From NCBI GenBank assembly GCA_041750285.1, contig JBGSZS010000018.1, forward strand, positions 231,745 to 295,744: a stretch of DNA of 64,000 nucleotides. Reading direction: 5' to 3'. Shown in pieces: positions 5,788 to 62,608 of this stretch. The notes below the pieces were generated by a model. That model saw nothing but the letters and a program-made list of their open reading frames with translations, made no database searches and was not told the origin of the DNA. Positions within the stretch are counted from its first letter, which is position 1. The number at the start of each line of letters is the position of its first letter. This DNA is from Candidatus Fermentibacteraceae bacterium. GTDB taxonomy: Bacteria > Fermentibacterota > Fermentibacteria > Fermentibacterales > JCC-6. The position numbers and the translations under genes were made by a program.

Positions 5788-7003
5788 CTTCGCAGACTCC
5801 CTTCAGAATGTGGCCCATCTTGTTCTTCTTCGTGGCAAGGTAAAACCTGTTGTCGTCGGTGGGGCAGATCTCGAGGCCCACCCTCTCCGTAACGTTCAGA
5901 CCGTATCCGGAAAGCCCGACTATCTTCTTGGGGTTGTTGGTGAGAAGCCTGATGCTCGTGAGCCCCAGGCGGACGAGTATCTGCGCTCCCGTGCCGTATT
6001 CGCGGAGGTCGGGGGCGAATCCCAGTTTCTCGTTGGCCTCCACCGTATCGAGGCCGTGGTCCTGAAGGTGGTAGGCCCTGATCTTGTTGGCGAGCCCTAT
6101 GCCCCTGCCCTCCTGGGCCATGTAGAGAACCACGCCCAGTCCCTCTTCCGAAATTCGCTTCATGGCGCCGTGAAGCTGTGAGCCGCAGTCACACCGCCTG
6201 CTCTGAAAGACGTCTCCCGTGAGGCACTGTGAATGTACCCTCACCAGTACGTTTTCTGCGCCCCTCACCTCACCCTTCACAAGGGCAACATGGGTCGCGC
6301 CGTCCACAAGGCTCCGGAACACCATCATGCGGAACTCGCCGAACTCCGTCGGAAGGACGGCCTGGGCCTGAAGCTCGACGAGCACCTCGGTCCTGCGCCG
6401 GTGGTTCACGAGTTCGGCAACGGAGGTGATTATGAGCCCGTGTTTCTCACCGAATTCCCTCAGTTGGGGAAGGCGGGCCATGGTGCCGTCGTCGTTCATT
6501 ATCTCACAGATGACCCCGGCGGGGAAAAGCCCGGCAAGCCTTGTGAGATCCACAGCGGCCTCGGTGTGCCCTACACGTGTAAGGACGCCGCCTTCGCGGG
6601 CCGCCAGGGGAAAGATGTGGCCGGGCCGGGCCAGGTCCTCGGGGCGTGAGGCGGGGTCGATGGCAACGGAGATCGTCCGGGCCCTGTCCGCCGCGCTTAT
6701 GCCCGTCGAGACCCCCGAAACGGCATCGATGCTCACGGTGAAGGCCGTTTCGTGAAGGGATGTGTTCCGGGGGCACATGTCCCTGAGATCAAGCCTCTCC
6801 AGTGCCGCCTTCTCCATCGCAAGGCAGACCAGACCCCTGGCGTGCCTGGCCATGAAGTTTACAGCGGCCGTGCCGCAGTGTTCGGCGGCCACCAGAAGGT
6901 CTCCCTCGTTCTCCCTGTTCTCGTCGTCCACAACGATGACCATGCCGCCGCGACGCAGAACCTCAAGGGTTTCCGGAACGGTGGCGAATTCAGCCTTGTT
7001 CAA
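5771..7003 (-). CDS. ribBA: Bifunctional 3,4-dihydroxy-2-butanone-4-phosphate synthase / GTP cyclohydrolase II
   Basis: 410 aa. The N-terminal DHBP synthase region ([13 protein letters not shown]) and C-terminal GTP cyclohydrolase II region (CDCGSQL, RGIGL) are both present. Confidence 0.9.
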
Positions 7004-7598
7004 TCTTGCGCCTCAATCCGTGCTGTTTTTCGAGGCAATCCATGCCCCTTTGTACGTATTTTCCGATGATGTCGAACTCCAGGTTCACCTGCGTTCCGGG
7101 TTTCCAGTGGGCGGCTCCCGTCCGTGAAAGTGTTTCGGGAATGACGGCAACCGTGAAGCCCGCCCCGGGGACGAGGCCGGCCACCGTGAGGCTGATCCCC
7201 GAAACTGCCACGGAACCCTTCTCCACAAGCAAACCGTGCCACTCACCGGGGCAGGTGATCCTGACCGTGGCGAACCCGTCCTGGTTGCGAACGGCGCCCA
7301 CCGTCCCGGTGCAGTCGACGTGTCCGGTGACGAGATGGCCGTGAAGCCTGCCATCCAGCCTCAGGGGCCGTTCGAGGTTCACGGGAGCGCCCGCCCTGAA
7401 AGGCACCGTTCTTCGAAGTGTTTCGGGGCTTACCCTGAAAGACACCCTTTTGCCGGACACCTTCTCCACCGAGAGGCAGGAGCCGTCAACGGCTAGGCTC
7501 TCTCCCGGGAGAAGCCCCGGCGCGAGAGCAGTTTCCAGCACCAGGAGGCTCCCTGCGGAAACCACCCTGCCCAAGTCCTCAATCAGCCCTGTAAACAA
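6990..7598 (-). CDS. ribE: Riboflavin synthase alpha subunit
   Basis: The TTG start yields the canonical [11 protein letters not shown]-terminus, preceded by GGAGGG. Two lumazine-binding repeats are present. I chose an internal start rather than the longer track ORF. Confidence 0.85.
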
Positions 7599-8610
7599 GC
7601 CTGCCCTCCACGAGTACATCTCCGTCAAGAGCTTCCACCACGGGGTCTTCGAGCGTCAGGGCGCTGCCAACGTCGGTCACCCAGAGGTCGTGAAAAACCG
7701 GCACCCCGCTCCCTCCCAGAAGCTTGGGTGCAGTGAACACGCTCAGCCGGTCCACCAGACCCTCATTGACAAGGGCAGTCGCGAGACGGGGCCCACCCTC
7801 GCAGAGAACGAGTCCGATACCCATCGAAAGAGTGCGTGACAAAAGCTTCTCGAGCGAGCTGAATCTGATGACCTCTCCAGGAGGGTCCCAAGGGCACCCA
7901 TCCTGAACGGCCGTGATGGTTCGCGCCCCGTCTGAGTATACGTTCAGTTCCTGTGGAAGGGGGCTTCCGGCGACTATTATGCGAACCGGCAGGGGACCCT
8001 GCCGACCCGTCGAAAGGGTCGGATTGTCGCGCAGGGCGGTTCCGGCTCCCACCATCACGGCGTGGGCGGATTCCCGCATCGCTCTCACCCTCTCCCGGGC
8101 CGCGGCGCCGGTGATCCAGCGGCTGCTGCCGTCGGATGCCGCCGCCCTGCCGTCGAGTGAGACCGCCATCTTCAGATGAAGAAAGCTCCTGTGAGAATTC
8201 AGGCAGTGGATCCATACACGGTTCAACTCCCGCGCTTCGTTTTCCAGAAGACCGATCTCGACCTCCACCCCGTGCTCACGAAGCAGGGCTGCTCCCCTGC
8301 CGCTGACCCTGGGGTCGGGATCCTCCATGGCTGCCACGACACGCCCTATCCGCGATGCCAGGATGGCTTCCACGCACGGTGGGGTCCTGCCGTGATGAAC
8401 GCATGGCTCGAGCGTTACGACAAGGGTCGACCCCTCGAGGCTGCCGGAGGCCTTCCCGATTGCCGCGGCTTCGGCGTGGGGACCCCCGCAGCAGCTGTGA
8501 TGGGCTTCGGACAGGGTTTTGCCCCGGGGATCGAGGATGACGGCGCCAACCATGGGGTTGGGAAAGACACCGGGCCAGCCGTCGCGGGCCAGGGCAATTG
8601 CCCTGTTCAT
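7579..8610 (-). CDS. ribD: Bifunctional diaminohydroxyphosphoribosylaminopyrimidine deaminase / 5-amino-6-(5-phosphoribosylamino)uracil reductase
   Basis: Starts at the internal MNRAIALARDG. Deaminase motif HAEAAAI...PCVHHGRTPPC and a C-terminal reductase domain. The N-terminal 100 aa of the track ORF is rejected as arginine-rich GC shadow. Confidence 0.85.
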   Translation of the reverse strand: MNRAIALARDGWPGVFPNPMVGAVILDPRGKTLSEAHHSCCGGPHAEAAAIGKASGSLEGSTLVVTLEPCVHHGRTPPCVEAILASRIGRVVAAMEDPDPRVSGRGAALLREHGVEVEIGLLENEARELNRVWIHCLNSHRSFLHLKMAVSLDGRAAASDGSSRWITGAAARERVRAMRESAHAVMVGAGTALRDNPTLSTGRQGPLPVRIIVAGSPLPQELNVYSDGARTITAVQDGCPWDPPGEVIRFSSLEKLLSRTLSMGIGLVLCEGGPRLATALVNEGLVDRLSVFTAPKLLGGSGVPVFHDLWVTDVGSALTLEDPVVEALDGDVLVEGRLVYRAD

Positions 8611-8636
8611 GGCTGCGAGTTCGGCTGCCCGCCGGT

Positions 8637-10049
8637 TCACTCCGTGATCTCCCTTACACTGAGCCTTCCGATGACCGCGTTTATGGTGTACTGATCCTCG
8701 AGGCTGCCCATTGCGAGAATGATGTGCGTGGCGTCGGCCAGCAGCATGCCGAACGTCGGGTCCATCGGAACCCAGCGCCCCACCCAGACGGTCGGCCACG
8801 CGTGATATCCGAACCTGCCCTCGTCGATGTAGACTATTCCATTGCAGACGGCCGAGGGTATCCCCGCCGCCCTCGCAAGGGCCACGAAAAGCGCCGTATG
8901 CTCGTTGCAATCGCCCCTCATCGCGTCCAGAACATCAACAGCTGAAGGCAGTGAAACGGTGGGCACGTCCTCGACGGCCATGTCCACGAAGCGGCAGATG
9001 GCCGAGGCGGCCTCCCACGAATCCGTGCAGCCCCGGGTGAGGCTGTCCGCCAGCGCCACGATCGCCGGGTCGTCGGACTGAAGCAGGGGCTCGGCGGCCA
9101 GATGGGCAAGAAGGCTGTCGGGTACCTCAGTCATGGGAAAGGGCGGTGTCTCCTCAGGGGATGGCAGCACGGCAGAGACATGCACGACCGGGCCGGCGGC
9201 TGAGGTCTGGAGCCCGGGGTAGTCGAGGTCGAACATGTTCCACTCGATGTCGCCCTCGAGAAGCCAGGTGCGCTCGCCGCCCGACCTGGGGTCGGTTACG
9301 ACCGTGGAGGCAACCGAATAGAGCATGTAGAGATCGTTTCCCGGGTCGATTTCGGCGCTGGTGCCGGGCGGAACCCTTGTGAGTATCATGCCCAGTCCCT
9401 GCTCCTCCTCGCGTATGATCTGACCCTCGTGCACCCAGACCATGTTCCTCATCCCGGCCTGGCTGATCTCCAGACGGAACGCCGGGACCGTGTCGCCCAG
9501 AAGGTCCATGTCTTCCGTGGCCTGACAGGTGACGGTCGCTTCAAGGATCGTTCCGGTCGACGGGTCGAATGTCTGGTAGACCCTCTCCTCGCCGGGTGAC
9601 CACTGCATGCCGGCGGCTGCCAGGTCCATGAAGGCCGGGAGGTAGTCGCCCTCGAACTCCACGCTGCGGGATATCTCCCGTCCCGAAGTGTTTATCGTGG
9701 TCTCGACGGCGCCTTCGCGCCTTACGGCGTTCACGCTTATCTCGCTGGTGCCGTCGCTCATCACCATGGAAAGGGTTCCGAGGTCGTAATCGGTGCCTGT
9801 TCTGGCACTGGAGGTCATGGTCACACGGCGCTCGGTCCCCAGAAGCACTATGACCCATTCCATGTCCTGTTCGACAAGAAGCGAATCGGCGCCCATCTGC
9901 CCGACGGACATGGTCATGTAGCCGACGCTCTGGCCCTGCAGGCTCACCGCGAACCTCTGCAGGTCCGCGGAGGCAAAGGTGGCCCTGGGCACGGGAGCGC
10001 CGCATGCACAGAGAACCAGCAATGACAGGAGAACACAGAGAGCGATCAT
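8637..10049 (-). CDS. Transglutaminase-like secreted/lipoprotein
   Basis: Internal start MIALCVLLSLLVLCACGAP (signal peptide). Transglutaminase core GDCNEHTALFVALARAAGIP...GYHAWPTVWV...MDPT (Cys-His-Asp). The ATGA overlap with the wecB stop supports this start. Confidence 0.7.
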   Translation of the reverse strand: MIALCVLLSLLVLCACGAPVPRATFASADLQRFAVSLQGQSVGYMTMSVGQMGADSLLVEQDMEWVIVLLGTERRVTMTSSARTGTDYDLGTLSMVMSDGTSEISVNAVRREGAVETTINTSGREISRSVEFEGDYLPAFMDLAAAGMQWSPGEERVYQTFDPSTGTILEATVTCQATEDMDLLGDTVPAFRLEISQAGMRNMVWVHEGQIIREEEQGLGMILTRVPPGTSAEIDPGNDLYMLYSVASTVVTDPRSGGERTWLLEGDIEWNMFDLDYPGLQTSAAGPVVHVSAVLPSPEETPPFPMTEVPDSLLAHLAAEPLLQSDDPAIVALADSLTRGCTDSWEAASAICRFVDMAVEDVPTVSLPSAVDVLDAMRGDCNEHTALFVALARAAGIPSAVCNGIVYIDEGRFGYHAWPTVWVGRWVPMDPTFGMLLADATHIILAMGSLEDQYTINAVIGRLSVREITE

Positions 10050-20348: not shown

Positions 20349-21524
20349 CTACAGCATGATGACCCGGACGGTGGCGGAAAGGCGGCCGCACACTGCCCGT
20401 ACGAAGTACACACCCTTTGCCCTTCGCGATCCGTCCGCGCCTGCTCCGTTCCACAGGTAGACCGATTGCCCGGACAGGGGGGAGAGGACCGCCACGACCC
20501 TTCCCGAAAGGTCGTACACCGAAACGACGGACCCCTCCGCGAAGCACGGATCCAGTTCAAGGGTAACGACCGATCCGAAGGGGTTTGGAACAGCCGTGAT
20601 GCCACTGCCGGCCTGACCGTGGAGAACACCCGAGGGATCGACCCGGAGACCGATGCTGTGGAAGGCGCCGCCGGACACTGCGACAAACCCGGTGTTCGGT
20701 TCGGGAACCTGGCACTGGCCCCAGTTGTCGTAACCGAAAGCCTCGACCGAGCCGCCGCATCTCAGGGCGAGTGTGTGCTTGCCTCCGCAGTCCTGTGCCA
20801 GAAAACCCTGATTGGGTTCGGGAACCTGGCACTGACCCCAGTTGTCGTAACCCCATCCAACGATCGTTGAATCGGCCTTCAGCCCGACGCTGTGCAGTCC
20901 TCCGCCGGACATGGCGGCAAAACCACTGTTCGGGTGCGGCACGTTGCACTGGCCGTCGCCGTTGTCGCCCCACCCCAGGATGCTGCCGTCGGAACGAAGC
21001 GCCATGCTGTGGAAGTTGCCGGCAGCCACTCCGCAGAACCCCTGATTGGGTTCGGGCACGTTGCACTGGCCATGACTGTTCGAGCCCCAGGCGCAAACCG
21101 TTCCGTCCGACCTCAGGGCGAGGCAGTGACCACCTCCGGCGGCAATGGCTATGAACCCGCAGTTGGGCTCGGGGATTTCGCAGACGCCTGCACCCTCGTT
21201 GCCCCAGACTGAGATGCTGCCGTCGGAACGAAGCGCCATGCTGTGGAAGTTGCCTGCAGCGATCGCGACATACCCGGTATTGGGAAGCGGGACGAAGCAC
21301 TCTCCGAACCTGTTGTTTCCCCAGGCCGTTATCGAGCCATCCTCGCGAAGGGCAAGATTGTGAAACCCCCCTGCGGCAATGGCGACAAACCCCTGGTTGG
21401 GCTCAGGAACGGCGCACTGACCGTAAAAGTTGCAGCCCCAGGCCGTTATCGAGCCCGAAACGGGGTCCGCCATCCCCTCGTTCACAAGGAGGAACACGGC
21501 GATGCCCGCTGCCATCCTCGTCAT
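20349..21524 (-). CDS. RCC1-repeat (beta-propeller) protein with a C-terminal T9SS-type sorting domain
   Basis: Seven repeats of GWGxNxxGQCxVPEPNxGFxAIAAGxxHSxALRSDGS. The C-terminal ~80 aa (PNPFGSVV..VYDLSGRVV..GVYFVRA) resembles the Por secretion tail. Start is MTRMAAGIAVFLLV (signal peptide); the alternative is MMYT at 21578. Confidence 0.65.
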   Translation of the reverse strand: MTRMAAGIAVFLLVNEGMADPVSGSITAWGCNFYGQCAVPEPNQGFVAIAAGGFHNLALREDGSITAWGNNRFGECFVPLPNTGYVAIAAGNFHSMALRSDGSISVWGNEGAGVCEIPEPNCGFIAIAAGGGHCLALRSDGTVCAWGSNSHGQCNVPEPNQGFCGVAAGNFHSMALRSDGSILGWGDNGDGQCNVPHPNSGFAAMSGGGLHSVGLKADSTIVGWGYDNWGQCQVPEPNQGFLAQDCGGKHTLALRCGGSVEAFGYDNWGQCQVPEPNTGFVAVSGGAFHSIGLRVDPSGVLHGQAGSGITAVPNPFGSVVTLELDPCFAEGSVVSVYDLSGRVVAVLSPLSGQSVYLWNGAGADGSRRAKGVYFVRAVCGRLSATVRVIML

Positions 21525-21625
21525 CGTCACCGTCTTCACCTCCGCGGCAACCGAATAACAAGCCTTAGTGTACATCATCTCCGGCACAAAACAAGGGGGC
21601 TGTGGTCTTTTATCCGAAGAGGATG

Positions 21626-21654
21626 TTGACACCGGAAGTCCGTGGGCATATACA
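21626..21654 (+). promoter_or_regulatory. Sigma-70-like promoter for the 21700 gene
   Basis: TTGACA, a 17-nt spacer, TATACA, then a GGAAGGAG RBS before the ATG. Confidence 0.5.
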
Positions 21655-21699
21655 TAACTTGCCATTTCGGCACAGCTTGTTTTTTGGAAGGAGTGAGGG

Positions 21700-22533
21700 A
21701 TGAAAACTGTTTTTACTCTTCTCATGCTGGCGGGCATTGTTCTTGCAAATGCGGACATGGCTCCCACCATCGGTGTTGCGCCCCAGGGAGTCGACACATC
21801 GCTTGAGCAGATCGCCACGATCGATGTCGAAGCCCAGGCAGGGAACGTTTACAGCGTCGGCTGCGGTTTCGACGGCACCTACCTCTGGGTTACCAACGGG
21901 GCCATGCAGGGCGGCGGCACCAACGGCTTGTTCATCCTGTTCGAGGAGGACGGCACCTACTACGCCACCTACAACCAGAACGGCGGTTCGGGCTGGGGTC
22001 TCCGTGACCTCACCTGCGACGGCACCTACATGTACGGCAGCGTCACCACAGCCATCGAATACTACGACATCGGCACCCACCTCAAGGTCGGATCGTTCAT
22101 CGGCCCCCAGAACCCCAACAGGGCCCTTGCCTGGGACGGCACCTACTTCTACACCGGCAATTTCGGCAGCGAGGTCTACCGTCTCACCTGGAACGGCGTC
22201 AGCGGTTCCACAGCCACCAGCACGGTCTGGTCCACTGCGGCCACCAGCGTCTACGGCGCAGCGTGGGATGAGCTCAACAACTGCATGTGGGTTACCAGCG
22301 CCGATGCCTCGGGCACCGTGGCCGAGATCGACGCCTCCGGCGCCCTCGTTCAGAACCACATCCTGGTCTCGGGCGGCACCTACGGCGGCGCCTGCATGGG
22401 CACCGGCACCACCGACGTCACCAGCACGCTCTGGATTCTGAACCAGGGCACCCCCGACACCCTCCTGGGCTTCGAGGTCACTCCCACCGCCCTCACCCGC
22501 GACACATGGGGCGCCATCAAGGCAGTGTTCTAA
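21700..22533 (+). CDS. Secreted repeat protein (DGTY repeats), hypothetical
   Basis: Signal peptide MKTVFTLLMLAGIVLANA. Repeated DGTY(L/Y/M/F)... modules. A strong promoter and a downstream hairpin flank it. Confidence 0.6.
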   Translation: MKTVFTLLMLAGIVLANADMAPTIGVAPQGVDTSLEQIATIDVEAQAGNVYSVGCGFDGTYLWVTNGAMQGGGTNGLFILFEEDGTYYATYNQNGGSGWGLRDLTCDGTYMYGSVTTAIEYYDIGTHLKVGSFIGPQNPNRALAWDGTYFYTGNFGSEVYRLTWNGVSGSTATSTVWSTAATSVYGAAWDELNNCMWVTSADASGTVAEIDASGALVQNHILVSGGTYGGACMGTGTTDVTSTLWILNQGTPDTLLGFEVTPTALTRDTWGAIKAVF

Positions 22534-22558
22534 GAAGGCCCCGATCAGCTGAATTGGC

Positions 22559-22582
22559 GGAAGGCCCCTGCGGGGGCCTTCC
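22559..22582 (+). terminator. Stem-loop terminator candidate
   Basis: GGAAGGCCCC-tgcg-GGGGCCTTCC, a 10-bp perfect stem 25 nt after the stop. No strong U-tract follows. Confidence 0.4.
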
Positions 22583-22620
22583 TGCAGTTCGGGACGACTC
22601 CCGGAAAGGCAATTGTGACA

Positions 22621-24183
22621 ATGAAGATCACAGCACTGTTTTTCGTCCTCGTTCTTGCCCTTGCGGCATGCGGGAATCCCAGGGGTACGGACTGGGTTTT
22701 CAGGACCGCGAACGACACCGTGACCGTCCGTGAAGCCGGTGAGCTCTGGTCGGGACTCGGGCGTGAAGAAAGGGCGGCATTCACCAGCGGGGAGGACCCG
22801 GCCCGGGATTTCGTCCTGGCCCTTGCCCGCAGGTCGATGCTCAACCATGAGCTTGCGGAATCCGGGCTTCTCTCCGCTCCGAAAGTGCTGAGGTACGAAT
22901 TGGCGTGGCAGCGCTCCACACGGTTCATGGCCCTTGCAGACTCCCTTCCCGCCAGGATCCTGCGGGGCCTGGGGGAAGACGACATAGCCTTCTTCAGGGA
23001 GCACATGGGCACTACGGTCTGGTTCACGGACATGTCCACAGGAACACCGAGCGGCCCGCATCACCTTCCCGAGCTTCCCCGTGAACTTACGATCGCTCTC
23101 TCAACCGCGGCCCGGGGCGAGTCGGTCACGGCGGGGGGCGTCGTCTTCAGGCTGGATTCCCTCGAGGGAACAGACAGCACCCTCCTTTCGGAAGCATTGG
23201 CAGATACCGCCAACATAAGGAGGCTTGCGCTCGCCAGGCTGTCTTCCGCCGAGGCGCAGCGCACCATATCCTTGGCCGAGCAGCAGGCCCTTTCGGAGAC
23301 CACTGTCGACACGTCCCTGGTGCTCGCCTTTGCAGCGGCGGGGGGCGACATCGGGTCAGGCGCATTCGACCCCGGCCTTGTGATCCTTGACTCTCCAATC
23401 CTCAGCCTGACCGCGAATGACCTCTACTGGGAGATATCGTTCACCTCTCTCAGCACCCCCGTTTCCCCGGGCTCAACGAGCTGGCTTTTCCACTATCTGG
23501 GCAACCTGGTCAGGCTCTCGGCCGGTGCCGGGCTGTTTGCCGGCGAGTGGCCGGCGGAGAGCGAAGGAATCGCCCTTGCAGCGCATGATCTCGGGAGGCA
23601 GACGGCCCTCGAGGCCCTTTACGATGAGCAGGTCCGTTCCAGTGTTGTGGTAACCGATTCCATGCTGGAAGCCGAGTTCCAGGGGCTTGCGGAACCACTG
23701 CTCCACCCCGAGCAAAGGGTTCTCGAGATCGGCCGCGTGAGGGCGGAAAACCTGCCCGGTCTGCGGCTGGCGCTTCAGAACGGGGATCATGCAGCGGTGA
23801 GGAGCCTGCTGGAACCCTATTCGACGTGGCCCGGCTTCGACACCGGCTCACTTGTATCCGTCCCCGTCACAGCCGCACAGGTTCCGGAAGCCATGGGGGG
23901 GACAGTCTTCTCGGCCGACCCGTCAGACTCAGTCACCTGGTACGGTCCAATGGAGACCTCACACGGCTCCCTCATGGTCTACCGCACCGCTCGAACGCTT
24001 CCCCGCAGGCCAGCCACTTTCGGCGAGGCCAGGGAATGGCTCGGGATGAGTGTCAGATCACGGCTCGAGGAAGACCGGACCAGACAATGGATGGCTGAGC
24101 TGGAAACGGAGAACGGGCTCGAGCTGAATGAAGAACTGCTTCCCGGTCTGCCAGCGGACCCGGCCCTTTGGACGGAGCTTTGA
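22621..24183 (+). CDS. Hypothetical lipoprotein
   Basis: MKITALFFVLVLALAACG (lipobox). No recognised catalytic motif. Confidence 0.55.
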   Translation: MKITALFFVLVLALAACGNPRGTDWVFRTANDTVTVREAGELWSGLGREERAAFTSGEDPARDFVLALARRSMLNHELAESGLLSAPKVLRYELAWQRSTRFMALADSLPARILRGLGEDDIAFFREHMGTTVWFTDMSTGTPSGPHHLPELPRELTIALSTAARGESVTAGGVVFRLDSLEGTDSTLLSEALADTANIRRLALARLSSAEAQRTISLAEQQALSETTVDTSLVLAFAAAGGDIGSGAFDPGLVILDSPILSLTANDLYWEISFTSLSTPVSPGSTSWLFHYLGNLVRLSAGAGLFAGEWPAESEGIALAAHDLGRQTALEALYDEQVRSSVVVTDSMLEAEFQGLAEPLLHPEQRVLEIGRVRAENLPGLRLALQNGDHAAVRSLLEPYSTWPGFDTGSLVSVPVTAAQVPEAMGGTVFSADPSDSVTWYGPMETSHGSLMVYRTARTLPRRPATFGEAREWLGMSVRSRLEEDRTRQWMAELETENGLELNEELLPGLPADPALWTEL

Positions 24184-25949
24184 TCCCATCGGGGTTTGCG
24201 GCGTTCTTCCTTCCCTTCGTGCTGGCCCTTTTCATTGTGTTTCCGGGGCTGTACGACACGACCATGACCAGCAGGCTCGCGTTCTTCCCTCTTCTGGGAG
24301 CGCTCACTTTGCTTGCAGGCAGGGGCGGCATCGGTATCAGACACCTGATCGCCGGCGTCGCCCTGGCCCTGACGGCGTGCCTGGGGCTTCTCATTGCTCC
24401 CGAACCCATTACAGGCGTGCCTTACGCAGTCCGCTGGGTATCGTTCGGGCTCATGTTTGCCGGGTTCAGCGGAACTACCGCCAAATGGGGACCCGGCAAA
24501 CACCTCGACGGCCTTGTGGCCGCGGCGGCACTGGTTTCGGTCCTGATGACCATTCTCGGCCCCGATGCCGTCAGCGGCAACCCGAACCGCACCGGAATGC
24601 TGCTGTCCCTGGGAGCCGTGGCTGCCCTTTCCGACGGGAACCGCACAAGGGCACTTGTCAAGTGTGCGGTTATCATTCCAGGGCTACTAGTCTCCGCGTT
24701 CTACATCTCCTGGCTTGCCTTCCTGCTGGGGGCCGCAGTCCTGTTCATCCACAGGCGGTTCCCGGTGAACCCGGGCTGGCTTCTGCTCCTGATGATCCTG
24801 GGCCAGGTTCTTTTTACTTCCCTGCCTGTGGCTGCGCGACGGATCGGCCCCACGGTCGAACTCAGAACCCTCGTGTGGCGCACTTCGGCAACACTTGGCC
24901 TGAACTCCTTTCCCGCGGGAACCGGAACCGGGCAGGCCAGGCTCTCCGTCTACAGTGACGGGGGACCCGTCCTGCAGGAACTTGCGGGGACGGACAGACG
25001 GGTTGACTTCCTTCACTCCGAACCACTCACCCTCTTCACCGAATTCGGCGCCGTGGGGCTCAGCATGCTTGTGCTCATGTTGCTTTGGGTGTTCCGGTCA
25101 CGTTGGGACCCTCTTCAGGCGGCTCTCCTTTCCGCGTTCTGGCTTGTCTTCTCGACCGACCTTCCCCTGGCGACACCCCTTGGAGCCCTTCCCGCTGCAC
25201 TCGTCATCGGGGGCTGCCTCAAGCCCGGTCGAACCGTGCGGGTACCCATCCTCGTTCCCGCAGCTTTTGCCCTGGTTTCCATACCGTGGGCGTACACACT
25301 GATCAGGGGCTACGGGGCGATGAACCGCCCGGAAAACCCAGAAAGCGCTTCGGAGGCGTGCAGGTACATTCCCTTCGAGGAGAGGGCCTTCCTGAATGCC
25401 GGATGGGCATGGCTGCGCTCGGGTTCGGCACTGCAGGCCAGGGAATACTCTCAGAGGTTCATTGAACTCTACCCGCATTACCATGGCGGTTGGGAGCTCC
25501 AGGCCGGAGTGCTTGGTCGGCTGGACAGGCCTCAGGAGTCCGCTTCAGCCTGGAGACGGGCTTTCGTCCTGGCTCCGGAGAGATTGAATGACAGGCTCCT
25601 GTTCGCCCTCAACGGTATCCCGTATTCGGAGAACTCCGGTGACACGCTTGTCCTTCTGGGCAACCGCCTGGCCTGCGAGATCCCATGGCATACCGCCTTC
25701 CCCGCGATACCGGATGAGGGGCATGCCGACATAGCCCTGAGATATCTCGAGCTGGCCGGGAATCTGAGATCCGTTGAACCCGGGCTCTCGGGTGCGCTCT
25801 TCGCCAGGGCGGTTATCCTTATGGGGTACTACCCGGGACACGCATGGAGCCGGTTCCGAGAGGAAGCTTCGCGGTGCTACCCGCTCTTCAGGGAACTCGT
25901 GCCCGTGGATCAGCGGGAGAAGGTCGAAGACCTCACCGCAACACTGTGA
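24168..25949 (+). CDS. O-antigen ligase/polymerase family (Wzy_C) membrane protein with a C-terminal TPR domain
   Basis: About 10 TM segments with an LHSEPLTLFTEFGAVG motif typical of WaaL/Wzy_C, followed by TPR-like helical repeats. The start is uncertain (TTG at 24168 or 24180). Confidence 0.6.
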   Translation: MDGALIPSGFAAFFLPFVLALFIVFPGLYDTTMTSRLAFFPLLGALTLLAGRGGIGIRHLIAGVALALTACLGLLIAPEPITGVPYAVRWVSFGLMFAGFSGTTAKWGPGKHLDGLVAAAALVSVLMTILGPDAVSGNPNRTGMLLSLGAVAALSDGNRTRALVKCAVIIPGLLVSAFYISWLAFLLGAAVLFIHRRFPVNPGWLLLLMILGQVLFTSLPVAARRIGPTVELRTLVWRTSATLGLNSFPAGTGTGQARLSVYSDGGPVLQELAGTDRRVDFLHSEPLTLFTEFGAVGLSMLVLMLLWVFRSRWDPLQAALLSAFWLVFSTDLPLATPLGALPAALVIGGCLKPGRTVRVPILVPAAFALVSIPWAYTLIRGYGAMNRPENPESASEACRYIPFEERAFLNAGWAWLRSGSALQAREYSQRFIELYPHYHGGWELQAGVLGRLDRPQESASAWRRAFVLAPERLNDRLLFALNGIPYSENSGDTLVLLGNRLACEIPWHTAFPAIPDEGHADIALRYLELAGNLRSVEPGLSGALFARAVILMGYYPGHAWSRFREEASRCYPLFRELVPVDQREKVEDLTATL

Positions 25950-27399
25950 ACCTTCCAGTGACCGCATCTCCGCCGCTTTCCGCCCGCACCAGGTAGACAC
26001 CGGGGGTCAACCCCCGAAGCGTCAGGGTGGAGAGGCCATGGGCAACGCGCCTTCCCGAGATGTCGAATACCGATATGAGACCCGTTCCCGTGATGCTGAC
26101 GCTCCCCGGGCCGAAAACGGGATTGGGGCCGATGGATAGTGCCGGCACGGGTGCCGGGGTTCCCTCGACGCCAAGGAAGTGCATCGCCGGAACCAACGTG
26201 GGGTCACCGAGGATCGTCATGCCAAGGTGCCAGTACATCTCGGTCTGGGAGAATCCCCCCTCCTGAATGTACTCCCACCACTTGAACATCGCTGTTCCGA
26301 ACGTGTCACCCTGCCCCAGCGGGCCGTAGAACTGGTTGAACTGGAGCATCGCGCCGCTCTTCGTGCTGCCGACGGCAGCCAGCCCGGTCTGGGTGCCGAA
26401 AACGTAAACGCAGCCCATGCACCAGTTGCTGGTGAACCGGGCGTTCGAGCATGCGAAGAGATTGTAGAACCTGCTGGGGGGCTGATCGGTCCAGATGTGC
26501 CCGCTGGTGGTGGAGGGGCCCGGGCTCCACTGATGGACCGTGGGGCCGGAGTGGACAAAGGGGCTGATCCAGGTGTAACCCGCGGGAAGCCTGTTCTGCC
26601 TGTAGTCGGTACCGTTGGTGGAATCCACCTGGCTCACCAGCTCAACATCGGAGTACAGCAGTTTCATCGAGTTTTTGTAGCCCACGCCCCAGCCGCTCCA
26701 GTCATCGTCTACGTAACACAGGGCGTGGGGTTCCGGGTCGCCCTCGAGACGCCACTGGTGAAGCCTTGTCAGGTAGTCGTTCATGAGCTGGTACTGGTTG
26801 CCGTAGAGGATCACATGGGTGAGTATCCTTCCAACGTATATCTCGGGGAACAGGTCACCGGTCCAGCCGTCGTACACCCCGTCAGGTCCGGGAGTCCCGC
26901 CCGCCGGGTAGCCAGTCCAGTCGTCGGACCATTCGCCGTCTAGATCCCAGTAGAAGTAGTCCGTAGGAAAGGTCTCGTCCGAGCGCTCGTCCGCGTAGTC
27001 TTCGAGGGCTGCCCATGCCGACGGCACGTCCCCCACCAGGACGACTCCCTCGAGGCCCTCGGAGTGCAGGCCCGAAAGCCATGCGCGGATCTCTTCAGGG
27101 GTGCTCCAGGTGAGTTCCACCGCGGAAACCGTGATGCCTTGAGCCTGGATGTCCGCCATCCACTGGTCCAGAAGCCCCGGGGCAAGACTGTCTGCGACGC
27201 TTTCAGTGAGGACCACGAGGAACTGCGATCCCCTTGCTTCGCCGGAAACGGGTGTCACCTGAAGCGGGACAAACGGCGGTCTTGCCGAAAGGTATTCTTC
27301 CCGGGTGTCCGGAACGTAGCCGGGATCAAGGTTGCGGGTGATGGGAGTGTAGTCGTACACCCCCGATGAAAGAAGAACCATCGCAAGAATGAATGTCAT
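25933..27399 (-). CDS. Peptidase family C25 (gingipain-like) with a C-terminal T9SS-type sorting domain
   Basis: Catalytic regions are collinear with RgpB: VHSGP (His), NLFACSNARF (Cys, compare DVACVNGDF) and LGDPTL (compare FGDPSL). The C-terminus (IGPNPVFG...VFDISGRRV...GVYLVRA) resembles the Por secretion tail. N-terminal signal or TM. Confidence 0.7.
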   Translation of the reverse strand: MTFILAMVLLSSGVYDYTPITRNLDPGYVPDTREEYLSARPPFVPLQVTPVSGEARGSQFLVVLTESVADSLAPGLLDQWMADIQAQGITVSAVELTWSTPEEIRAWLSGLHSEGLEGVVLVGDVPSAWAALEDYADERSDETFPTDYFYWDLDGEWSDDWTGYPAGGTPGPDGVYDGWTGDLFPEIYVGRILTHVILYGNQYQLMNDYLTRLHQWRLEGDPEPHALCYVDDDWSGWGVGYKNSMKLLYSDVELVSQVDSTNGTDYRQNRLPAGYTWISPFVHSGPTVHQWSPGPSTTSGHIWTDQPPSRFYNLFACSNARFTSNWCMGCVYVFGTQTGLAAVGSTKSGAMLQFNQFYGPLGQGDTFGTAMFKWWEYIQEGGFSQTEMYWHLGMTILGDPTLVPAMHFLGVEGTPAPVPALSIGPNPVFGPGSVSITGTGLISVFDISGRRVAHGLSTLTLRGLTPGVYLVRAESGGDAVTGRFTVLR

Positions 27400-46175: not shown

Positions 46176-46547
46176 ATGATCTCGAGAACTGCTGCCCTTC
46201 TTGGTGTTCTTCTTGTTTCGGCCGGCTGCGGGAGTTCACCCAGTGACCCGGGAACCCAGGAACAGGGACCCGCGCTTGTCAGCCCCACTGACGGGGCTTC
46301 CGAGACCGGTCCCGAAGTGACTTTTGCCTGGGATGCGGTGACAGGAGCCACAAAGTACTATCACCAGGTTGCTTCAAACGCCTCGATGCAGAATCCTCTG
46401 GAAACCGTTGTCACCTCGACAGCGGCGACTGTCAGTCCGGGTGCTGCCGGAACATGGTGGTGGAGGGTTCGTGCTTCGGTATCGGGCCAATCCACCTACA
46501 CGCCGTGGTCGGCAATCTGGTCATTCACTCTGAACCAGCTACCCTGA
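46176..46547 (+). CDS. Small lipoprotein with an FN3/Ig-like domain, hypothetical
   Basis: MISRTAALLGVLLVSAGCG (lipobox) with a GGAGGA RBS. A TFAWDAVTGATKYY...WWWRVRA beta-sandwich pattern. Confidence 0.55.
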   Translation: MISRTAALLGVLLVSAGCGSSPSDPGTQEQGPALVSPTDGASETGPEVTFAWDAVTGATKYYHQVASNASMQNPLETVVTSTAATVSPGAAGTWWWRVRASVSGQSTYTPWSAIWSFTLNQLP

Positions 46548-48161
46548 GTTCGTCCTTCCTGAAGGATCTGCCGGCTGTTCACCGTATGCTGCCAGACCCG
46601 ACAACGACTTCAGCTGCCAGACCTGGTTGGTCCCGAAATCGCATACGTACTCGTACCTGTCAAGGAAACTGCTGTCCCGAAAGACAAAGCTCTCCTCCCA
46701 TTCCAGGAAGTACGCCACATCCCGGGATTCGAGGTACTGCCCGTAGTGCCCCGCGGGAAGCCCGAGTATCTCGGTATTCACCTTTCCGTCGGTATTGATG
46801 GTCCTGTCATGAAAATAGCCAAGCGTGCCCGACTGGCTGGCCCCGACCCATGTGTCCACGGAGACGTTCTCCCTGACCCAGCCCCAGTGGTACAGGTACA
46901 TGGGGTTGTATGGCTCTGAATAGGTGGAAACGGTAACCGCAAGGTTGAACAGAATCCCGCCGGCGAGCACTACCACGGTGTACCTGTCGCGAAGACGGTC
47001 CAGAACGGAGGCAAGAACGGCGACCGCCGCTATCGAGACAGGTATCAGGTACCGGTTCATGTACCACTCCACATTGAAGAAAAGCACGTAGAACAGAAAC
47101 AGCCCGAGCAGGAACAATGGGAAGAACGAAAGGTCCCTCCATGGGAGCATCTTCCGGAACTCACTTCCCTTGATGGTCCTTGATGCCATGAACGCGAACA
47201 CCGCCACTGCAGCGGCCTTGACGGCAAGCAGGGCGACCGATCTCACCGTGACGGAATATATGGCGCGCAACGGCACCCAGAGTACGAACGTGAGGTTGTC
47301 CAGTGTTACATGCGCTGCGTACCACAGGTTTCTCAGGATCTCGGGAATGATTGTCGAGGCATCAGCGGTGCGGCCCATTGTCTGCACCAGCCCGGAGATC
47401 GGCAGTGGGTTGCCGGTGAGCCCGATGTTGTAAAGCCACCAGGGCAGCGTGGCAAGCGCCCAGCCGGCAGCCCAGCGTAGCGGTCCCGAAACGAACCTTC
47501 GGAAGGCCCCTCTCTCCCCCCCTCCTTCCGCCGGTCCCGCAATGAACACGTAGTGTATGGCCAGTGCGGCGGCGAACAGGCCCGAATCGATCCTGGTCAG
47601 CGTGACGATTCCAAGGAAGACGCCGAACAGGACACCTGCAGGAAGACCGGGTCTGGCCCTGGCAGCGAAGCGCAGGTAGAGAATGGCTGCCAGCATGAGC
47701 ATCAGAAGGTAAAGGCCGGTCTCAAGACCGTTGGTGCTCTCCTTCATGATGTTGTACGAGCAGGCCCAGAGTGCGGCCGCGATCCATGCGGCCCGTCTGC
47801 GGCCCGTCAGGTAACGGATCAGGCCGAACACCGACACAACTCCCAATAGATGGATCATCAGATGAAGGCCGTGCACCAGCCTGAGAGCCTGGTACCTGTC
47901 CGGTGTCACGAGGTAGAGCAGTGAGCAGAGAAAGACGAAAACCGGTTGTATCCCGTTCGTCGGGATCTCGCCGTCGGATACGGAAAGCCCCTTTCCGATG
48001 GCCAGATTTCTGGACACGGTGAGCCCGTAGAATCCGTCATCCCGAAAAGGCCTGTCCGCAAGCATTTCAGTGGGTCTGAAAATCAGGGCGACATGAATGA
48101 GCATTCCGACGGCAAAATTGACAAGTATCATGAATCGGGGCAGCCGGCTCACGGTTTTCAT
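46539..48161 (-). CDS. GT-C fold membrane glycosyltransferase (family 39 / ArnT / PMT-like)
   Basis: More than 10 TM helices, an N-terminal DxD-like region and overall resemblance to dolichyl-phosphate-mannose-protein mannosyltransferase-like proteins. Internal start MKTVSRL with a GGAGAG RBS. Confidence 0.55.
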   Translation of the reverse strand: MKTVSRLPRFMILVNFAVGMLIHVALIFRPTEMLADRPFRDDGFYGLTVSRNLAIGKGLSVSDGEIPTNGIQPVFVFLCSLLYLVTPDRYQALRLVHGLHLMIHLLGVVSVFGLIRYLTGRRRAAWIAAALWACSYNIMKESTNGLETGLYLLMLMLAAILYLRFAARARPGLPAGVLFGVFLGIVTLTRIDSGLFAAALAIHYVFIAGPAEGGGERGAFRRFVSGPLRWAAGWALATLPWWLYNIGLTGNPLPISGLVQTMGRTADASTIIPEILRNLWYAAHVTLDNLTFVLWVPLRAIYSVTVRSVALLAVKAAAVAVFAFMASRTIKGSEFRKMLPWRDLSFFPLFLLGLFLFYVLFFNVEWYMNRYLIPVSIAAVAVLASVLDRLRDRYTVVVLAGGILFNLAVTVSTYSEPYNPMYLYHWGWVRENVSVDTWVGASQSGTLGYFHDRTINTDGKVNTEILGLPAGHYGQYLESRDVAYFLEWEESFVFRDSSFLDRYEYVCDFGTNQVWQLKSLSGLAAYGEQPADPSGRTNSG

Positions 48162-48242
48162 CACACTCTCCATTCAGGAAGAAGCGGATCTCCGTTCAAC
48201 CGCACCAACGGCAATAATCGTTCGTAAATCATATACTATGTA

Positions 48243-61016: not shown

Positions 61017-61310
61017 ATGGAGAAAACGGGGAGGGGGCGTTACATCGCCCTTCTCCTCGCCGTTCTGCTGCTGGTGACCGCCGCCCTCGTACTTTTCAAC
61101 CGGAACGGCTTCCTCGCCAACAGGCGGCTGCAGCTCCAGATGCAGGAGACGGCGAGAGAGATCGATTCAAGGGCGGCCCTGCTTGACTCGCTGGAGGAGT
61201 GTGCCCGAAGGCTGACCACCGATTCCCTCTTCATGGAAACCCGCGTCCGGGAAGTGCTGGGGTGGGGAAGACCCGATGAGCACATCGTGAGGTTCGTGGA
61301 ACCGGAGTGA
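61017..61310 (+). CDS. ftsB: Septum formation initiator family (FtsB/DivIC-like)
   Basis: Internal start MEKTGRGRY. One TM helix plus a coiled coil. Positioned after eno as in many bacteria. Confidence 0.6.
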   Translation: MEKTGRGRYIALLLAVLLLVTAALVLFNRNGFLANRRLQLQMQETAREIDSRAALLDSLEECARRLTTDSLFMETRVREVLGWGRPDEHIVRFVEPE

Positions 61311-62608
61311 AAAAGACATCCCTTTCCATTCCGCTGCTGTCGATTCTATGCACGGCACCCCTGGTGGTGATGATCCTCTCTGCCAGCTTCATGCCCGACT
61401 CCGACAGGGCCGCCCACTCCCTGTGGGCGGGGCAGCTCCTGCGGGAAGGCAGCCTTTCGATCTCCCCCGACGGCGTGGTTGACGACTGGAAGGCATTCTA
61501 CCCCAACACGGTGCCAAAACCCGCCGACCTGTTTCTCGGTGTCATGGGCACCCTGTCCGGGCCGTTCCTTGAGGGCATGTTATGGACGGCGCTTTCCTGG
61601 GCGGCGATCTTCGGCGCCATGAAAGCTGCGGGTGGCGGATTGCCAGGTACCGCTACGGGGGTGTTCCTGGGTCTCAACCCGGTCTTTTTGAACCTCTGCA
61701 TGACAAGAAGCCCCGCAGTGCCTTTCATGGCTCTCATTTACACCGGCGTCTCGGGCAATTCCCCCGCAGCATTCGCCCTGTCATCCCTGGTGCGCCCCGA
61801 GGGGTTCATCTTCGGGGTATGGAAGGCACTCAGGGCGAGAAGTTTCAAGGCAGTTCCCATCCTGGTCCTGTCTGCGGGAGTATGGGCTCTTTTGAACTCA
61901 CAGGCGTGCGGAGACCTTTTCTGGTCGGGGCGGGAGGTCCGTTACTGCGTTGCCGCAATGGGTTACGGAACTCCGAACGTGATCACCTACGTTCCATGGC
62001 TCTTCCTGAGGGCGGTGGCGGTTCTCGGCCCGCTTCCCCTCGCGGCACTGCTTTGCAGGGCGGCGAGCTGGGACCTCGGGCGTCCCGTCCTGCTCAACTT
62101 TTTGTTTCTCTGGGTCGGGCTGGCTTTCGGAAGCCTCGTTCTCCCCCGGTACGCCGATCAGATACTGCTTCTTGCGGTTCCCTTCGCCATGGGCGCTGTG
62201 CTCGGCTCGTTCCGCGGCATGGGCCCGGTGGCGGCGGTTGCTCTCTGTTTGGCAGGAGCGGCGCTTCCATGGGCGGACACCATCGATTCCTGGGGCACCG
62301 AGGCGGCGCTCGACCGTAACCTCGGGGCCGTCTCGGCATCACTGCCTGACGGCATTATCGCGGCCAACGAACTTGTCATTCCAAGACTGGCCATTCTCGA
62401 CGGAGGAAGGGGCTATCCGGACAGGTATGTCGCACTGGACAGGGCGGTTTGGGAGGGCGCCGGGGAGGACGACCTTCTGGGCCACGGGGTGACCGCAATC
62501 GTTATCTTCAGGGATGACTTCTACCTCTCGGACCATGCCGCAGCATGGATCGACACACTGTCGGGAAGGATCCCTTTGTTCGACATATCACCACCCCGGT
62601 CTCGATGA
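61307..62608 (+). CDS. Polytopic membrane protein, hypothetical
   Basis: 433 aa and about 10 predicted TM segments. Overlaps both neighbours by 4 nt. Confidence 0.5.
   Translation: MKKTSLSIPLLSILCTAPLVVMILSASFMPDSDRAAHSLWAGQLLREGSLSISPDGVVDDWKAFYPNTVPKPADLFLGVMGTLSGPFLEGMLWTALSWAAIFGAMKAAGGGLPGTATGVFLGLNPVFLNLCMTRSPAVPFMALIYTGVSGNSPAAFALSSLVRPEGFIFGVWKALRARSFKAVPILVLSAGVWALLNSQACGDLFWSGREVRYCVAAMGYGTPNVITYVPWLFLRAVAVLGPLPLAALLCRAASWDLGRPVLLNFLFLWVGLAFGSLVLPRYADQILLLAVPFAMGAVLGSFRGMGPVAAVALCLAGAALPWADTIDSWGTEAALDRNLGAVSASLPDGIIAANELVIPRLAILDGGRGYPDRYVALDRAVWEGAGEDDLLGHGVTAIVIFRDDFYLSDHAAAWIDTLSGRIPLFDISPPRSR

Follow-up and report, generated by a model that had tools for sequence, protein, structure and literature searches.

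Known systems and the locus

The closest described systems to the locus reported here are the O-antigen ligase WaaL and the O-oligosaccharyltransferases (O-OTases) PglL and PilO (TfpO), the type IX secretion system (T9SS) with its C-terminal domains (CTDs), the parvulin-type chaperones SurA, PpiD and PrsA, and the C-terminal signals LPXTG, PEP-CTERM, GlyGly-CTERM and MYXO-CTERM. The locus occupies positions 20349-27399 of a 64,000-nt stretch of contig JBGSZS010000018.1 from a Candidatus Fermentibacteraceae bacterium; this whole stretch is referred to as the window. At its centre are three genes, encoding a secreted beta-propeller protein that ends in a short C-terminal tag, a lipoprotein, and a membrane protein with a predicted O-antigen-ligase fold and tetratricopeptide repeats (TPRs), hence termed Wzy_C-TPR. 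The three-gene module and the tag are the parts of the region most worth attention.

The catalytic loop of WaaL faces the periplasm, and the target of PilO is the C-terminal residue of pilin. PorU of Porphyromonas belongs to the C25 family and retains its own CTD, and cargo attachment there needs WaaL. Arg and His residues are necessary in WaaL and conserved in PglL, and O-OTase genes adjoin the genes of their substrates in 21 of 31 cases (PMC3643930). Known small C-terminal signals are tripartite, with a motif followed by a transmembrane helix and a cluster of Arg residues (bioRxiv 10.1101/2023.06.07.544157). The genomes of Hyd24-12 point to a diderm envelope with lipopolysaccharide (LPS; PMC5030696).

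The region contains five open reading frames (ORFs), all with the boundaries given in an earlier note made from the sequence alone, and the same gene calls are found on an identical 14.8-kb public contig. The existence of the five genes named in that note (RCC1 protein, 'DGTY' protein, lipoprotein, membrane protein and C25 peptidase) is thus confirmed. The features of the region are as follows.

20349-21524, minus strand: RCC1-repeat beta-propeller protein, 391 aa (PF13540, TIGR04183), with a CTD at about 20352-20588
21626-21654, plus strand: promoter-like site TTGACA-17 nt-TATACA, from direct reading of the sequence
21686-21699, plus strand: strong Shine-Dalgarno sequence GGAAGGAGTGAGGG, 5' of the propeller gene
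21700-22533, plus strand: 'DGTY' secreted propeller protein, 277 aa, with a signal peptide (21700-21756), a beta-propeller (21805-22476), a flexible linker and the tag (22492-22530)
22559-22582, plus strand: GC-rich, terminator-like hairpin GGAAGGCCCC-TGCG-GGGGCCTTCC, 3' of the propeller gene, at a position kept across the phylum
22621-24183, plus strand: lipoprotein, 520 aa, with lipobox LAAC and a putative parvulin-like region at about 23863-24120
24180-25949, plus strand: predicted Wzy_C/WaaL-fold membrane protein, 589 aa, with 13 transmembrane helices (24180-25322), a loop (24819-25019) and TPRs (25338-25943)
25933-27399, minus strand: C25-family cysteine peptidase, 488 aa, with a catalytic domain (26191-27144) and a CTD (25936-26127)

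A conserved three-gene module

Related loci were collected from 185,579 species genomes, and the resulting 31 loci all belong to Fermentibacteria, Sabulitectum or Aegiribacteria. In essentially all loci with enough flanking sequence, the genes for the propeller, the lipoprotein and Wzy_C-TPR lie side by side in the same orientation. They occur in three orders: propeller-lipoprotein-Wzy, Wzy-propeller-lipoprotein, and lipoprotein-Wzy-propeller-lipoprotein. Because the linkage outlasts rearrangement, gene order points to a functional tie between the three genes. Their window products have no Pfam or NCBIfam match.

The two flanking genes behave differently. Only L002, L003, L004 and L006 carry the RCC1 gene, which is absent from L005 and from every more distant locus; it is a lineage-specific accessory insertion. 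The C25 gene closes a convergent PSP1-MetRS-GT4-Zn-peptidase-M50 run in the loci of Fermentibacteraceae and Sabulitectum, and Aegiribacteria-type loci lack it in the vicinity of the module. A single coordinated cluster of all five genes, as suggested earlier, was therefore not borne out: RCC1 is limited to the four closest relatives, C25 belongs to the convergent run, and only the three middle genes stay together. As judged from synteny, the region is a mosaic rather than a single T9SS cargo cluster.

The propeller protein and its C-terminal tag

The propeller of the window carries the sequence L-x-R-D-T-W-G-A-I-K-A-V-F at 22492-22530. All propeller orthologs end in L-x-R-[DE]-T-W-G-x-I-K-x-x-F, with W, I, K and F conserved in 100% of sequences. 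In a six-frame regular expression search of the window and the 31 loci, the motif lies at the ORF end, right before the stop codon, in 35 of 36 cases, the sole exception being the upstream tandem copy in L002. Tandem duplicates of the propeller gene were found in L002 (6709-7347 and 7522-8352), L003 (6354-7178 and 7505-8335) and L010 (2-526 and 732-1556); the upstream copy of L002 runs 43 codons beyond the tag and is possibly decaying.

In L028 the tag is carried by four more secreted proteins of ~230 aa that belong to two other families, one of them DUF7901-like. Their genes are placed between the Wzy_C-TPR, lipoprotein and C25 genes (L028 5821-14238). Two large polytopic membrane proteins of 522 and 516 aa, with no Pfam match, are also encoded amid these tagged genes (L028 9415-12559, minus strand). 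An early 'DDN'-type loop motif in them may be reminiscent of GT-C glycosyltransferases.

The tag has a wider distribution in a slightly different form. Distant propellers of other lineages and their unrelated neighbours, including a beta-helix protein and a DUF7901 protein, end in VExx[ST]WGxIKxx[YF]R. With VExx[ST]WGxIKxΦ[YF]R-COOH taken as the canonical form, a strict 45-nt degenerate pattern that includes the stop codon matched at least 120 stretches in metagenomes. Gene neighbourhoods were counted in 80 metagenome loci (L038-L117) out of these matches. In these loci 95 ORFs end in the tag and group into at least 25 unrelated sequence clusters; 17 ORFs encoded alongside are T9SS-CTD proteins. 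No family of non-tagged genes recurs beside the tagged genes in the 80 loci. The C25 and propeller family hidden Markov models (HMMs) had no match there, and the lipoprotein HMM matched a single SurA-like lipoprotein. The tail of ten canonical tagged proteins had no NCBIfam match; one such protein has a 'choice-of-anchor X' domain just ahead of the tag. A literature search for the tag sequence strings found nothing. In L034, a locus from outside Fermentibacteria, a TPR protein of 358 aa, with a membrane anchor at its N-terminus, is encoded between two tagged genes (8340-9416, minus strand) and may correspond, as a protein on its own, to the fused TPR domain.

Homologous propellers end in a variety of tails. 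Among the best 148 propeller relatives, with tail classes assigned by simple patterns, about 55 have a T9SS-like CTD, 10 the tag, 7 a YxIYLP-type tail ('YxIYLP(L/V)'), 4 an acidic tail with Cys residues at the end, and 4 a transmembrane segment followed by a basic tail; the other 68 are of other or unclassified types. The tails are interchangeable on homologous propellers, and the tag therefore holds the position of known surface-sorting signals. Like LPXTG, PEP-CTERM, GlyGly-CTERM and MYXO-CTERM, it is located at the extreme C-terminus of many unrelated secreted proteins, is found several times per locus, and swaps with other anchors on homologous domains. In contrast to the tripartite signals, it comprises 9-14 residues, ends nine residues past the Trp and has no hydrophobic segment. 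A PEP-CTERM-like tripartite signal was considered and rejected, since the tag lacks both the transmembrane helix and the Arg cluster.

The propeller protein itself starts with a signal peptide and contains the DGTY motif four times, in agreement with its initial description as a DGTY-repeat secreted protein. None of its 91 homologs, each of ~280 aa, contains a Pfam domain, and all of them terminate in the tag. The AlphaFold2 model (predicted local distance difference test, pLDDT, 85.6) shows a beta-propeller, then a linker of low confidence and, at the end, a short helix (residues 270-276). Structural matches of the propeller are generic, the best by template modelling (TM) score being five-bladed glutaminyl cyclases (TM 0.56-0.60, 12-13% identity). 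We rejected a glutaminyl cyclase assignment, as the likeness is at the fold level only and has no bearing on function. A profile search against 1.84 billion representative proteins gave 2066 relatives at E<=1e-3, and the proteins that contain the domain reach 4883 aa; the propeller is thus a widespread module that is not modelled by Pfam.

Upstream of the propeller gene, a perfect -35 hexamer TTGACA, a 17-nt spacer, a -10 hexamer TATACA and a strong ribosome-binding site can be read directly. A sigma-70 consensus scan reported neither a promoter nor a terminator at this gene; the promoter site was missed because its -10 hexamer ends in A. The hairpin downstream has a 10-bp GC stem with no T-run in the window. 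It recurs 3' of nearly every propeller ortholog, with a T-run in the relatives of lower GC content, the exceptions being the upstream tandem copy of L010 and L015. Of the strong promoter and terminator claimed earlier for this gene, the promoter hexamers are readable and the hairpin is conserved, whereas the consensus scan was negative and the hairpin has no T-run. Since the gene has its own promoter-like site and a conserved terminator-like hairpin, it probably forms a separate, strongly expressed transcription unit.

One explanation of the tag leaves the neighbouring enzyme aside: it could be a self-contained anchoring or export signal, for instance a short amphipathic helix with a docking partner in the outer membrane, and its linkage to the membrane enzyme could be historical. 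The tag is indeed modelled as the short helix (270-276) past the low-confidence linker, and the tagged proteins of other lineages fall into at least 25 unrelated clusters with no recurring neighbour. Within the phylum, however, the linkage is kept through rearrangements and tagged genes cluster in L028, and we regard this explanation as improbable. We also consider a broader proposal, in which the tag is an undescribed C-terminal sorting or anchoring signal without a transmembrane segment, borne by cell-surface proteins of uncultured bacteria from the FCB (Fibrobacteres-Chlorobi-Bacteroidetes) group. In Fermentibacterota its machinery would be the adjacent WaaL-fold enzyme, with the TPR domain reading the free C-terminus and the SurA-like lipoprotein helping. 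Proteins would thereby reach their place on the outer surface by a new way of attachment, parallel to T9SS. Taken as a whole, this proposal is rather unlikely.

The membrane protein and the lipoprotein

The membrane protein of the window matched neither Wzy_C (PF04932) nor any other Pfam family at E<=0.1. In its family, Wzy_C is matched in 21 of 32 members, and the only other matches are to TPR-type families, including one to YfiO. The C-terminal third matches TPR proteins both by profile and by fold. In the AlphaFold2 model (pLDDT 87.8), nine helices are followed by a loop (214-280), four more helices and TPR repeats (387-588). Residues R229, R254, R274, D276 and H279 of the loop are invariant. 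Arg and Lys abound in the short loops that follow helices 10 and 12. Because four helices follow the periplasmic loop, and by the positive-inside rule, the model would place the TPR domain in the periplasm. The top structural match of the model is WaaL (PDB 7tpj, Cupriavidus metallidurans; 14% identity, over the membrane part only), and a profile of the membrane domain found no sequence-level relative among solved structures. The earlier description of an O-antigen-ligase core fused to TPRs thus holds through the homologs, the fold and the TPR profile, while the window protein itself has no Wzy_C match; the model supports a protein of O-antigen-ligase fold fused to TPR repeats.

The predicted enzyme shares with WaaL the fold and a periplasmic loop with conserved Arg and His residues. 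It differs from the 7tpj structure by a 13th helix and a putative periplasmic TPR domain of about 200 aa. With PglL and PilO it has in common the Wzy_C superfamily and conserved Arg and His residues, and the genes of those enzymes are usually located beside a substrate gene (PMC3643930); here the neighbouring candidate substrate is a beta-propeller rather than a pilin, and a TPR domain is foreign to PglL and PilO. The nearest structures of the TPR domain include modules bound to C-terminal peptides, namely HOP with Hsc70, Sti1, and PEX5 with the peroxisomal targeting signal PTS1.

The gene upstream encodes a 520-aa protein with the lipobox LAAC, which upholds its annotation as a lipoprotein. 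The parvulin domain PF13145 (Rotamase_2) was matched in 8 of 26 family members (best E 3.9e-7), and one homolog bears the name peptidylprolyl isomerase (PPIase). For the window protein neither Pfam nor NCBIfam gave a match, solved PPIases match only weakly (E about 0.3), and the N-terminal region of the lipoprotein resembles a typical SurA-like lipoprotein of L086, from another lineage. We read it as a divergent SurA/PpiD-like chaperone on the basis of these similarities. It is similar to SurA, PpiD and PrsA in size and in being a lipoprotein or periplasmic protein, with PF13145 present in part of the family as given above; it differs from them in that the window member lacks a family match and its parvulin-like region is putative. 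The stop codon of this gene and the start of the next one, which encodes the membrane protein, overlap. The previously proposed overlap of 16 nt applies only to a TTG start at 24168; with the TTG at 24180, which gives the 589-aa protein called on the public contig, it is 4 nt.

The chief alternative to an enzyme-substrate relation is as follows. The Wzy_C-TPR protein could be an ordinary LPS O-antigen ligase or polymerase and the lipoprotein a general SurA-like outer membrane protein (OMP) chaperone, with the propeller as an unrelated protein, abundant in the periplasm or at the surface, and the three genes sharing an envelope-biogenesis neighbourhood. WaaL itself is the top structural match, the module is single-copy and phylum-wide amid housekeeping genes, and the Hyd24-12 genomes indicate a diderm LPS envelope (PMC5030696). 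Moreover, the propeller gene comes with a promoter and a terminator-like hairpin of its own, and the tag is found in lineages with no such enzyme nearby. On the other hand, WaaL 7tpj aligns to the membrane part only, leaving the extra helix and the TPRs without a counterpart, the adjacency of the genes outlasts three independent rearrangements, and tagged genes accumulate in the L028 cluster. We consider this scenario credible but on balance unlikely.

T9SS-type proteins flanking the module

In the RCC1 protein a signal peptide precedes seven RCC1-like repeats of 39 aa (PF13540, RCC1_2, E 9.6e-45), and its tail shows a PNP...DLSGR...GVY pattern. The C25 peptidase matches PF01364 with 37.4 bits against a cut-off of 23, over profile positions 22-373 of 374, and all 15 of its orthologs match this family as well; the label of gingipain-like C25 peptidase is therefore well founded. 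The earlier note had assigned T9SS CTDs to both proteins. TIGR04183 matched the tails with 27.6 bits (RCC1) and 23.1 bits (C25), both above the cut-off of 23, whereas PF18962, with 19.6 and 17.7 bits, respectively, stayed under its gathering score of 27. Among the 15 C25 orthologs, TIGR04183 was matched in all and PF18962 in 13 at E<=0.01. The extreme C-terminus of the C25-family profile also matches RgpB CTD structures (5ag8, 5ag9, 5hfs and 7pq4; E 4e-5 to 4e-4). The assignment thus stands for both tails by TIGR04183 and, for C25, also by the orthologs and the RgpB structures, and fails at the PF18962 threshold; by these matches, both tails can be taken as genuine T9SS type-A CTDs.

Like the type-A cargo protein RgpB of Porphyromonas gingivalis, the C25 and RCC1 proteins combine an N-terminal signal peptide with a C-terminal domain of 65-80 aa. 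The likeness extends to the matches with TIGR04183 and solved RgpB CTDs and to a peptidase in the gingipain family C25; the differences are the PF18962 scores below the gathering threshold and a C25 domain remote from the gingipain catalytic domains. Indeed, the C25-family profile found no sequence match to gingipain catalytic domains in the PDB. The family is conserved at 51-92% identity across the phylum, and H283 (FVHSG) and C317 (LFACSN), invariant in 15 orthologs, are a candidate catalytic His-Cys dyad. The C25 peptidase is conserved in the phylum and is part of the neighbouring housekeeping operon. Its gene overlaps the Wzy_C-TPR gene tail to tail by 17 nt (25933-25949), with a like arrangement in relatives, e.g. 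at L002 11757-11761; because the 3' ends overlap, there is no space for a terminator between the two genes.

A PorU identity of the C25 protein was considered. An NCBIfam scan of the 15 orthologs reported no family besides TIGR04183, and the protein was for this reason not called PorU; its 488 aa compare with about 1100 aa of the multidomain PorU, which we take to be more than twice as long. Attachment through T9SS may still be envisaged, with C25 acting as a compact PorU-like sortase that cuts CTDs and Wzy_C-TPR building or ligating an anionic LPS anchor for cargo such as RCC1. In favour of it are the genuine type-A CTDs on both flanking proteins, the unusual conservation of C25 including the invariant His and Cys, and its overlap with the convergent Wzy gene in most loci. 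Against it, NCBIfam gave nothing but TIGR04183 for the 15 orthologs, C25 lies away from the module in Aegiribacteria-type loci, RCC1 is accessory, and no T9SS core gene is present within the 64-kb window (SprA, PorV, PorU and PorK/L/M/N were looked for). The synteny weakens this model, and we judge it to have little likelihood.

The organism was previously placed in, or linked by gene transfer to, the FCB group; the taxonomy lookup puts Fermentibacterota in this group, and homologs of the membrane protein carry the names Candidatus Fermentibacteraceae or Fermentibacteria. The T9SS elements found here are ordinary for an FCB-group bacterium. Literature searches found no paper connecting Fermentibacteria with T9SS.

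Proposed mechanism

The reading that we favour, tentatively and at somewhat less than even confidence, is that tagged surface proteins are the substrates of the ligase-fold enzyme with TPRs, which would glycosylate or anchor them with the aid of the lipoprotein. The small beta-propeller would be secreted, probably at a high level, and its flexible tail would present [ST]-W-G-x-I-K-x-x-F-COOH. The SurA/PpiD-like lipoprotein could keep the tagged substrate competent, and the enzyme could be made by translational coupling to the lipoprotein gene. Owing to the 13th helix, the TPR domain would lie next to the catalytic loop on the periplasmic side, where the domain could capture the free C-terminal tag. 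The WaaL-fold domain would then move an undecaprenyl-diphosphate-linked glycan onto the tagged protein, or join the tagged protein to a glycolipid, in a transfer reaction akin to those of O-OTases of the same superfamily.

We propose this enzyme-substrate relationship because of the linkage of the module, the stop-start overlap of the lipoprotein and enzyme genes, the invariant residues of the loop, the predicted periplasmic side of the TPR domain, the position of the tag at the stop codon, the additional tagged genes of L028, the homologous propellers that bear CTDs or other anchor-type tails, and the tagged protein with a 'choice-of-anchor X' domain. Precedents are the O-OTase genes that adjoin substrate genes and the TPR modules solved with C-terminal peptides.

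Several observations weigh against the proposed relationship. The canonical tag is common in lineages with no adjacent Wzy_C-TPR: this gene was found beside tagged genes in none of the 80 metagenome loci, nor in L033, L034 or L036. In L020 of Aegiribacteria, the sole exception to the linkage within the phylum, a Wzy_C-TPR homolog (5946-7778) is present without the propeller and lipoprotein genes. To judge from its promoter-like site and hairpin, the propeller gene is probably not co-transcribed with the lipoprotein and enzyme genes. The likeness of the TPR domain to peptide-binding TPRs is weak evidence, as any TPR shows such likeness. No PglL-type model matched among the 32 members of the membrane-protein family, and the modelled fold alone cannot tell a ligase, a polymerase and an O-OTase apart.

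The L020 enzyme gene is flanked by nitroreductase-like and radical-SAM-like genes, as read from their translations, and is a relocated copy or a paralog.

Other genes of the window

The rest of the window is made up of housekeeping genes, including those for UvrA, DnaK, DnaJ, methionyl-tRNA synthetase (MetRS), enolase, S-adenosylmethionine (SAM) synthetase and riboflavin genes. Two polytopic membrane proteins are also encoded elsewhere in the window, at 46539-48173 (minus strand, 544 aa) and 61307-62608 (plus strand, 433 aa). They have no Pfam or NCBIfam match and are dissimilar to each other. Kinship of these two proteins with the large membrane proteins of L028 was rejected, as no similarity was found.

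Implications for the cell surface of Fermentibacterota

Fermentibacterota abound in anaerobic digesters and in sediments without oxygen, and to our knowledge nothing is known about their cell surface. Whatever the mechanism, a short tag without a transmembrane segment, outside NCBIfam, is common to dozens of unrelated secreted proteins in many metagenomes, and an unmodelled propeller domain family comprises more than 2000 representative sequences. If the favoured reading is true, a member of the O-antigen-ligase superfamily would glycosylate or anchor proteins and recognise its substrates via a fused TPR domain; we know of no description of such a design in this superfamily. Because the tag sits where homologous proteins bear T9SS CTDs, it may signal a second route to the surface in lineages that bear T9SS.

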